From the IMG/VR virus record IMGVR_UViG_2541047172_000030: a stretch of DNA of 20,554 bases. One strand, 5' to 3'. This stretch comes from a virus. Its lineage: Duplodnaviria; Heunggongvirae; Uroviricota; Caudoviricetes. Numbering within the stretch: the first letter of the stretch is position 1; the number at the start of each line of letters is the position of its first letter. Below, one piece after another: positions 20,159 through 20,226 of the stretch. Both the position numbers and the translations under genes were made by a program. The notes under the pieces are model-generated. The model was not told where the DNA came from, did not search any database, and saw only the letters and a list, made by a program, of their open reading frames with translations.

Positions 20159-20226
20159 TAGTATCAAATAAGTTGCGTATCGGCGTTTTTCAGCGGTATC
20201 AAATGAAATGCAAATCGGTATCAAAA
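20159..20226 (+). repeat. Three direct repeats of GTATCA(AA) with G/C-rich left flanks: candidate transposase-binding sites at the prophage right end
   Basis: GTATCAAA occurs at 20161-20168, 20196-20203 and 20218-20225. They lie immediately downstream of mom, where Mu carries its three right-end MuA-binding sites; the last copy ends in CA at 20222-20223. Confidence 0.4.

Follow-up and report, generated by a model that had tools for sequence, protein, structure and literature searches.

Candidate transposase-binding sites just inside the right terminus of an Sp18-type Mu-like prophage in fitA

Close to one end of a 20,554-bp stretch of viral DNA (the whole of which is referred to here as the window) a short motif occurs three times directly behind a mom gene. 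Two questions follow: where does the prophage end relative to these repeats, and what reads them? We consider it highly likely that the three repeats, GTATCAAA, are R1–R3, the cores at which the right end of an Sp18-type Mu-like prophage inserted in fitA is bound by its transposase. The prophage is one of E. coli O157, and the repeats very probably serve as docking sites.

Details of the repeats bear out the preliminary description, which had noted three direct copies after mom and a CA (20222–20223) in the last of them. GTATCAAA lies on the plus strand at 20161–20168, 20196–20203 and 20218–20225: exactly three copies inside 20159–20226, at distances of 47–111 bp from the mom stop codon. A fourth is found at 1455–1462 on the minus strand and there are no further copies in the window, for which 0.5 copies are expected; none of 100 dinucleotide-preserving shuffles reached four. 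By a rough estimate the chance of a same-strand triple within 65 bp is ∼3e-7 per window. The bare hexamer GTATCA is common (15 copies in the window versus 6.9 expected), and hence the signal sits in the 8–9-mer, the real unit being the 9-mer (G/A)GTATCAAA: GGTATCAAA at 20195–20203 and 20217–20225, and AGTATCAAA at 20160–20168. A degenerate copy, GTATCG, at 20177–20182 is not conserved, reading TTATCG in a variant prophage.

The genes preceding the repeats are those of a Mu-like phage. The last is mom (19377–20114, plus strand; Pfam Mom, E=4e-77; labelled ‘protein mom’ in identical copies), overlapped by com, its translational activator (19223–19423, plus strand; Zn_ribbon_Com, E=3e-12; RefSeq coordinates transferred from L002). 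Between a gin-like invertase (15296–15856) and com/mom is a three-gene cassette (15956–18605) encoding a 679-aa protein with SASA sialate-O-acetylesterase and DUF6645 domains (NanS-p-like), followed by DUF1378 and DUF826 proteins. The trio is familiar from lambdoid Stx prophages, so that at 15956–18605 it has the look of cargo carried by a Mu-like phage; PADLOC returned no defence-system matches around the cassette. GC content drops to 41–48% across 13–20 kb of the window. In O157 copies, the part of the prophage upstream of the window has a feature that RefSeq labels ‘tRNA-OTHER’, situated between the genes for head morphogenesis and virion morphogenesis (L004:21306–21386); the label is absent from strain ERL06-2497.

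The right terminus can be placed to the base. Approximately 2,000 E. coli genomes matched a query spanning the region, none over the whole span. With a tighter query, copies of the prophage beside many different host genes (the loci include dcuC, psiE, comR, ydhR and caiC) match only up to 20242, while matches to a TonB-dependent siderophore receptor gene begin at 20243, a start returned also by a query consisting of the flank only. The flank (20243–20554, plus strand) is the 3′ fragment of fitA, starting at nt 1831 of 2142 (codon 611) and running as far as the stop, and is identical at 312 of 312 bases to fitA of E. coli O157:H7 Sakai (ECs_3917), where the empty site reads ...cgtcat^ACCGGTTC. 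Since homology among prophage copies stops at 20242 and intact fitA resumes at 20243, the right terminus of the prophage is 20242, ...GCGCTATA-3′ (...CTATA-3′). The region reads gcgccgatttaGTATCAAAtaagttgcgtatcggcgtttttcagcgGTATCAAAtgaaatgcaaatcgGTATCAAAaaaatcgccgcgctata up to the end of the prophage, followed by accggttcgc of the host.

The window thus holds, as had been proposed, the right end of a Mu-like prophage in a receptor gene. The proposal that the element ends at the CA at 20222–20223 was wrong: empty-site and multi-copy comparisons agree on 20242/20243, and the CA is merely the last two bases of a GTATCA core, with the true end 19 bp beyond. The terminal 17 nt (AAAATCGCCGCGCTATA, 20226–20242, plus strand), which in copies from many loci match only to 20242, carry a 3′-terminal TA and are probably the cleavage-proximal segment. 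Cores R1–R3 sit 18–83 bp inside this exact prophage–host junction. Some E. coli genomes have up to five places that match a query composed of the mom 3′ end, the right end and the fitA flank, and insertions are found also inside other prophages (in genes for tail fibre, portal and host-specificity protein J, as well as in Stx phages); multiple copies and prophage-in-prophage insertions are consistent with ongoing transposition.

With the terminus fixed, the cores can be assigned distances from it. R1 (GGTATCAAA, 20217–20225, plus strand) occupies positions 18–26 from the terminus, R2 (GGTATCAAA, 20195–20203, plus strand) positions 40–48, and R3 (AGTATCAAA, reverse complement TTTGATACT; 20160–20168, plus strand), a probable accessory site, positions 75–83; read inward, each is TTTGATAC(C/T). 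The left end was taken from a complete copy of the prophage, annotated inside an Stx phage in GenBank LC727895.1, where it reads TGTAACCAGGTGAATCATTTGATACC... The inverted copies that the preliminary description had proposed looking for are present: TTTGATAC(C/T), read inward, occurs at 18–26 (L1), 113–121 (L2) and 165–173 (L3). Each end therefore has three cores, and TTTGATACC stands at 18–26 from both termini, L1 and R1 being at the same distance. TTTGATACY occurs eight times on the two strands of the 39.3-kb prophage; six of the eight are these terminal, inward-facing copies. The left junction of the fitA insertion itself lies beyond the window and is predicted to read ...CGTCATACCG/T(G/A)TAACCAGG or, in longer form, ...CCTCGTCATACCG/T(G/A)TAACCAGGTGAATCATTTGATACC (the slash marks the junction); the predicted product is a shortened FitA in which residues 1–611 are followed by Val and a stop. 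A perfect 9-bp inverted repeat (ATCACCTGT-N16-ACAGGTGAT; L003:553–587, left end, outside the window) lies in the L1–L2 spacer and is kept in all left-end variants, including the divergent copy in MDP9-27; a bending or accessory protein may have its site there.

Comparison with the ends of Mu, which were fetched for the purpose, reveals a shared plan executed with a different motif. The RCGAAA core of the MuA sites is found at 21, 126 and 166 in the left end of Mu, and at 21 and 43 in the right end, with an extra one at 12 within R1 and an inverted copy at 57. In both phages there are three sites per end, the terminal site is equidistant from the two termini and the right-end sites come directly after mom. 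The layout is asymmetric in both, R1–R3 being clustered and L1 standing ∼90–100 bp apart from L2–L3; the R1–R2 spacing is 22 bp in each, and L1–L3 spans 147 bp here versus 145 bp in Mu. The two also share early genes in the order c-ner-A-B, a MuB-like ATPase, gin and com/mom. They differ in R3, which is inverted in Mu but direct and further in here. Further differences are the core (TTTGATACC here, the 22-bp MuA consensus in Mu), the right terminus (TA here, CA in Mu), the left terminus (TG, or TA in some copies) and the target duplication (4 bp here, 5 bp in Mu). No MuA half-site (RCGAAA or GTTTCAY) is found on either strand of 20115–20242; this mismatch with the MuA consensus counts against reading the repeats as transposase sites, as does the direct orientation of R3. 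The earlier view of the motif, as a divergent core for transposase recognition that is not the Mu consensus, is supported.

Were the repeats of functional relevance, they might be expected to outlast their surroundings. Comparison of ten right ends and nine left ends shows that the cores are invariant where neighbouring DNA changes. In the right end of L003 the R3 core is kept although 7 of the 25 bases separating it from R2 are different, and beyond ∼100 bp the sequence is unrelated throughout. The left end of MDP9-27 is strongly divergent from position 89, with L2 and L3 persisting, and in that of L008 the cores are constant though their flanks diverge. When the 190 bp preceding 36 related transposase genes (IMG/VR) were searched blind for 8- or 9-mers that occur three times, the TTTGATAC triplet was recovered, at spacings of 95 and 52 bp, wherever the upstream sequence sufficed.

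The pattern GGTATCAAA-N13-GGTATCAAA recurs in several classes of right end with unrelated spacers, the second core always being followed by exactly 17 nt and then by unrelated flank. The 22-bp R1–R2 spacing was found in every relative examined. R3 is less uniform: in the enterobacterial right-end classes it lies 35 bp upstream of R2 (again with unrelated spacer sequences), whereas among CA-ended right ends that are more distant yet carry this core it is missing at −35 in L092, L098 and L119 and present in L115. These four are viral contigs, several of them metagenomic, in which the 17 nt end in ...CTACA or ...GTTACA. Many other matches to GGTATCAAA-N13-GGTATCAAA in viral contigs proved to be unrelated tandem arrays and were set aside: L093, L094, L100–L102, L106, L130 and others contain dense arrays of GGTATCAAA-like or, in other cases, TATCTTGAA-like units, and the arrays in the contigs named resemble iterons, not Mu-type ends.

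Other lineages have the same architecture with other cores. In a Shigella/E. coli class (the TTCAAGATA class), TTCAAGATAA stands at position 18 of both ends, in three copies per end and with an R1–R2 spacing of 22 bp; its carriers are the S. flexneri and E. coli loci L019, L062–L067, L071 and strain FDAARGOS_943, with transposases 71–76% identical. A megablast search of the phage collection with the left end of this class gave no match. Pseudomonas phage VW-6B, for which the right end only is available (the GenBank record is without a left end), has cores of the sequence CAGTCCARAA at a spacing of 22 bp, with tttttcgccgcgctaCA after them, and ends in CA. Mannheimia phage 3927AP2 has TTTTGCATAG at 18 in both ends, with a further copy 22 bp further in on the right and another at position 165 on the left. 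VW-6B and 3927AP2 thus share with our prophage the terminal 17 nt, the 9–10-bp core at position 18 and a second core 22 bp further in; they differ in the sequence of the core and in their canonical CA ends. The block TCGCCGCGCTA(C/T)A is common to this prophage and VW-6B. On these sequence comparisons the end is composed of two modules, a lineage-specific 9-bp core and a terminal 13-bp block, TCGCCGCGCTAYA, shared family-wide; the block is probably read by the catalytic domain.

The wide conservation of TCGCCGCGCTAYA, which exceeds that of the core, could be taken to mean that the transposase reads some feature such as this GC-rich terminal block, and that the repeats arose by chance or are incidental to the terminator or 3′-UTR of mom. 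There is indeed a terminator-like hairpin after mom (20145–20191, plus strand), with a 13-bp stem (GAAAAGCGCCGAT/ATCGGCGTTTTTC) and a 21-nt loop holding the R3 core; a simple terminator scan missed it because the loop exceeds 8 nt. Its predicted RNA fold is stable (−23.6 kcal/mol, z=−3.2, with none of 200 shuffles as stable), A and T runs flank it in the window, and in the L003 variant the stem is kept with one mismatch. The hairpin encloses the first copy, R3, only, and is not kept in other classes of right end, where motif and spacing are. Moreover, the left end, which has no mom gene, carries the 9-mer three times inverted, its positions being identical relative to both termini, and the ∼3e-7 estimate speaks against chance. 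An incidental origin of the repeats is accordingly very unlikely. For R3 itself the position in the loop, together with its absence from more distant CA-ended right ends, means that it may be an accessory site or may not be bound at all.

If the cores are transposase sites then changes in the core should be reflected in the protein. The left end of the prophage encodes, in the order c-ner-A-B, a repressor, Ner, a 696-aa transposase and a MuB-like ATPase. The A protein matches the Pfam models HTH_Tnp_Mu_1 and Mu-transpos_C, and the B protein encoded beside it (L003:3884–4816) matches Phage-MuB_C and AAA_22. The transposase gave no match to HTH_Tnp_Mu_2 (I-gamma) or DDE_2 and only weak matches to rve in Pfam, while MuA itself matches all four models; identity to MuA is only 22%. 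D309 and D375 align with D269 and D336 of MuA. The best match to the catalytic region in a search of PDB sequences is RSV integrase (E=1.4e-4), matches to MuA being weak or marginal; D375 and E415 fall inside the stretch that matches the RSV integrase core, and we take them to be the counterparts of what are presumably its catalytic residues D121 and E157. As in retroviral integrases (rve), the D375–E415 spacing of 40 residues approximates the D-35-E type (it is 56 in MuA); unlike these, the protein is the transposase of a phage, with accessory domains of the Mu type and several end-binding sites, and does not belong to a retroviral LTR system. The closest transposases in the phage collection are those of VW-6B (47%), vB_MhM_3927AP2 (45%) and the D3112-like Casadabanvirus (∼30%): D3112, DMS3 and the JBD phages reach ∼30% over ∼90% of transposase length, versus 22% for MuA. 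The transposases of VW-6B, 3927AP2 and the D3112-like phages are of the same type as ours, with a Mu-like N terminus, an integrase-like core and Mu-transpos_C. A scan of genome contigs with the transposase returned only two loci.

Identity along the protein is not evenly distributed. In a sliding window, residues 121–200 are 60–100% identical within the TTTGATAC class versus 27–47% in the TTCAAGATA class, while residues 201–640 are ∼80–97% identical in both; residues 1–40 assort independently of core class, along with the variable early region. Between the two enterobacterial classes that were compared, then, the core motif tracks transposase residues 121–200. An AlphaFold2 model built from a 14-sequence alignment (members 76–80% identical to the first sequence) was poor overall (mean pLDDT 47.7, pTM 0.23), residues 110–270 being helical with pLDDT ∼70–80; a Foldseek search of the PDB with this poor model gave no match with E≤0.001. 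The conservation of the cores and their covariation with residues 121–200 are indirect support for the view that the transposase binds them; the missing matches to HTH_Tnp_Mu_2 and DDE_2 count against it.

Host architectural proteins (IHF, HU or Fis) might instead occupy the cores and bend the ends. Mu transposition employs HU and IHF at the ends and the enhancer, and TATCAA fits the WATCAA half of the IHF consensus. The full consensus, WATCAANNNNTTR, is matched nowhere in 20115–20242. Furthermore, phages whose hosts are the same or related would not have TTCAAGATAA, CAGTCCARAA or TTTTGCATAG in the place of a host-factor site, and such a site would not change in step with part of the transposase; we give this explanation little credence.

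Similarly improbable is binding by another phage protein, for example a repressor or a packaging (pac) protein. The idea has precedent: the Mu repressor has an N-terminal DNA-binding domain in common with MuA, and the pac of Mu is near the left end. Here, TTTGATACY is not found in the repressor–ner operator region, and core class does not follow the N-terminal residues (1–40) of the transposase. Packaging signals are unexpected as an inverted symmetry at both ends. The transposase remains the most probable reader of the cores.

The flanks of independent insertions provide the length of the target duplication. The 5 bp foreseen in the preliminary description proved incorrect: the duplication is exactly 4 bp in 13 of 13 independent insertions of related prophages, and a fifth base is unsupported in either core class. 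The ten duplications of the TTTGATAC class are AGAG, ATTA, AGTA, ATAG, TTTT, TTCT, CCAA, CGAT, TACA and ATCA, and the three of the TTCAAGATA class are GAAA, AGGA and GATA. For dcuC, where the empty site was compared, a composite of the flanks with ATTA included once restores the intact gene (236/236). Duplications of 5 or 6 bp with shifted boundaries were considered and rejected, as on one flank the fifth base never changes, while on the other it varies. In fitA the right copy of the duplication is predicted to be ACCG (20243–20246, plus strand), its length being that of the 13 other insertions. Mu duplicates 5 bp and B3 6 bp (PMC8705779). We found no description in the literature of Sp18 ends or of 4-bp duplications by Mu-like phages; the sole trace of the latter is a 4-bp ‘duplication’ feature annotated in GenBank LC727895.1.

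The terminal dinucleotides are also unusual. All Sp18-type copies have TA as their right terminus. On the left, Sp18-type termini read TGTAACC in 13 loci and TATAACC in 5 (L034, L038, L040, L041 and L047), with unrelated flanks; the second base is therefore polymorphic, and TG...TA and TA...TA versions coexist. All ends of the TTCAAGATA class, and those of L055/L057, are TA. As CA is the terminus of more distant right ends that carry this core, TA looks like a derived state. TG–CA ends were considered universal until TA–TA prophages were found in Leptospira, and whether TA-ended prophages exist in other bacteria was posed as a question by Olo Ndela et al. 2021 (PMC8705779). The present prophages share non-canonical TA termini with those of Leptospira (TA on the right, and in many cases also on the left). 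They differ in that the Leptospira prophages have B3/Tn552-type transposases and 6-bp duplications (PMC8705779), whereas here the duplication is always 4 bp, the Sp18 type proper is TG...TA, and TA–TA belongs to sister lineages. A canonical Mu-type TG...CA element ending at 20222–20223, with host DNA from 20224, would suit the CA really present there, the CA ends of Mu and most transposable phages (PMC8705779) and those of more distant relatives with the same motif, but has a negligible chance of being correct: prophage copies at many unrelated loci have 20224–20242 beside the motif at 100% identity, homology ends at 20242 and intact fitA matches only from 20243, which refutes an end at CA 20223.

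By analogy with Mu, the following sequence of events can be envisaged. The transposase would bind the six cores through a putative helical DNA-binding region (residues ∼110–270), with residues 121–200 setting specificity, and its subunits would pair the two ends into a transpososome. The putative DDE core (D309, D375, E415) would then direct attack on the target by the 3′-OH of the terminal A at each end, with a 4-bp stagger, the MuB-like ATPase assisting strand transfer. Repair would leave a 4-bp duplication, here predicted to be ACCG.

Together these features place an element of an ordinary kind in a variant transposable-phage lineage whose core motif is new, whose right terminus is TA and whose target duplication is 4 bp. 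Whether the variation amounts to more is a closer call: we lean, if only slightly, towards regarding the Mu-like prophages of the Sp18 type and its enterobacterial sisters as a subclass of their own, distinct in mechanism and apparently undescribed, having a D3112-related transposase with an integrase core, a 4-bp stagger, one or both ends TA and modular ends. In such a subclass the ends would combine a lineage-specific 9-bp core exactly 17 bp from the terminus, its sequence dictated by transposase residues ∼121–200, with a family-wide GC-rich terminal block.

The boundary of the prophage is fixed to base 20242, and the hundreds of Sp18-type prophages in pathogenic E. coli can be annotated by a simple rule: inward from either terminus come T(G/A), 15 nt and TTTGATACC, with 4-bp repeats as flanks. 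The minimal cis elements for constructing mini-elements from the phage are now supplied. Because the core covaries with an 80-residue segment of the protein, recognition is testable by domain swaps. More broadly, these phages offer natural variants for two questions about DDE transposases and integrases, namely what sets the length of the stagger and how strict is the terminal CA: closely related elements differ in having CA or TA at the terminus, and a relative 47% identical in its transposase shares the terminal block. If the distinct subclass is real, it would extend TA-ended transposable phages beyond Leptospira, the question posed in PMC8705779.
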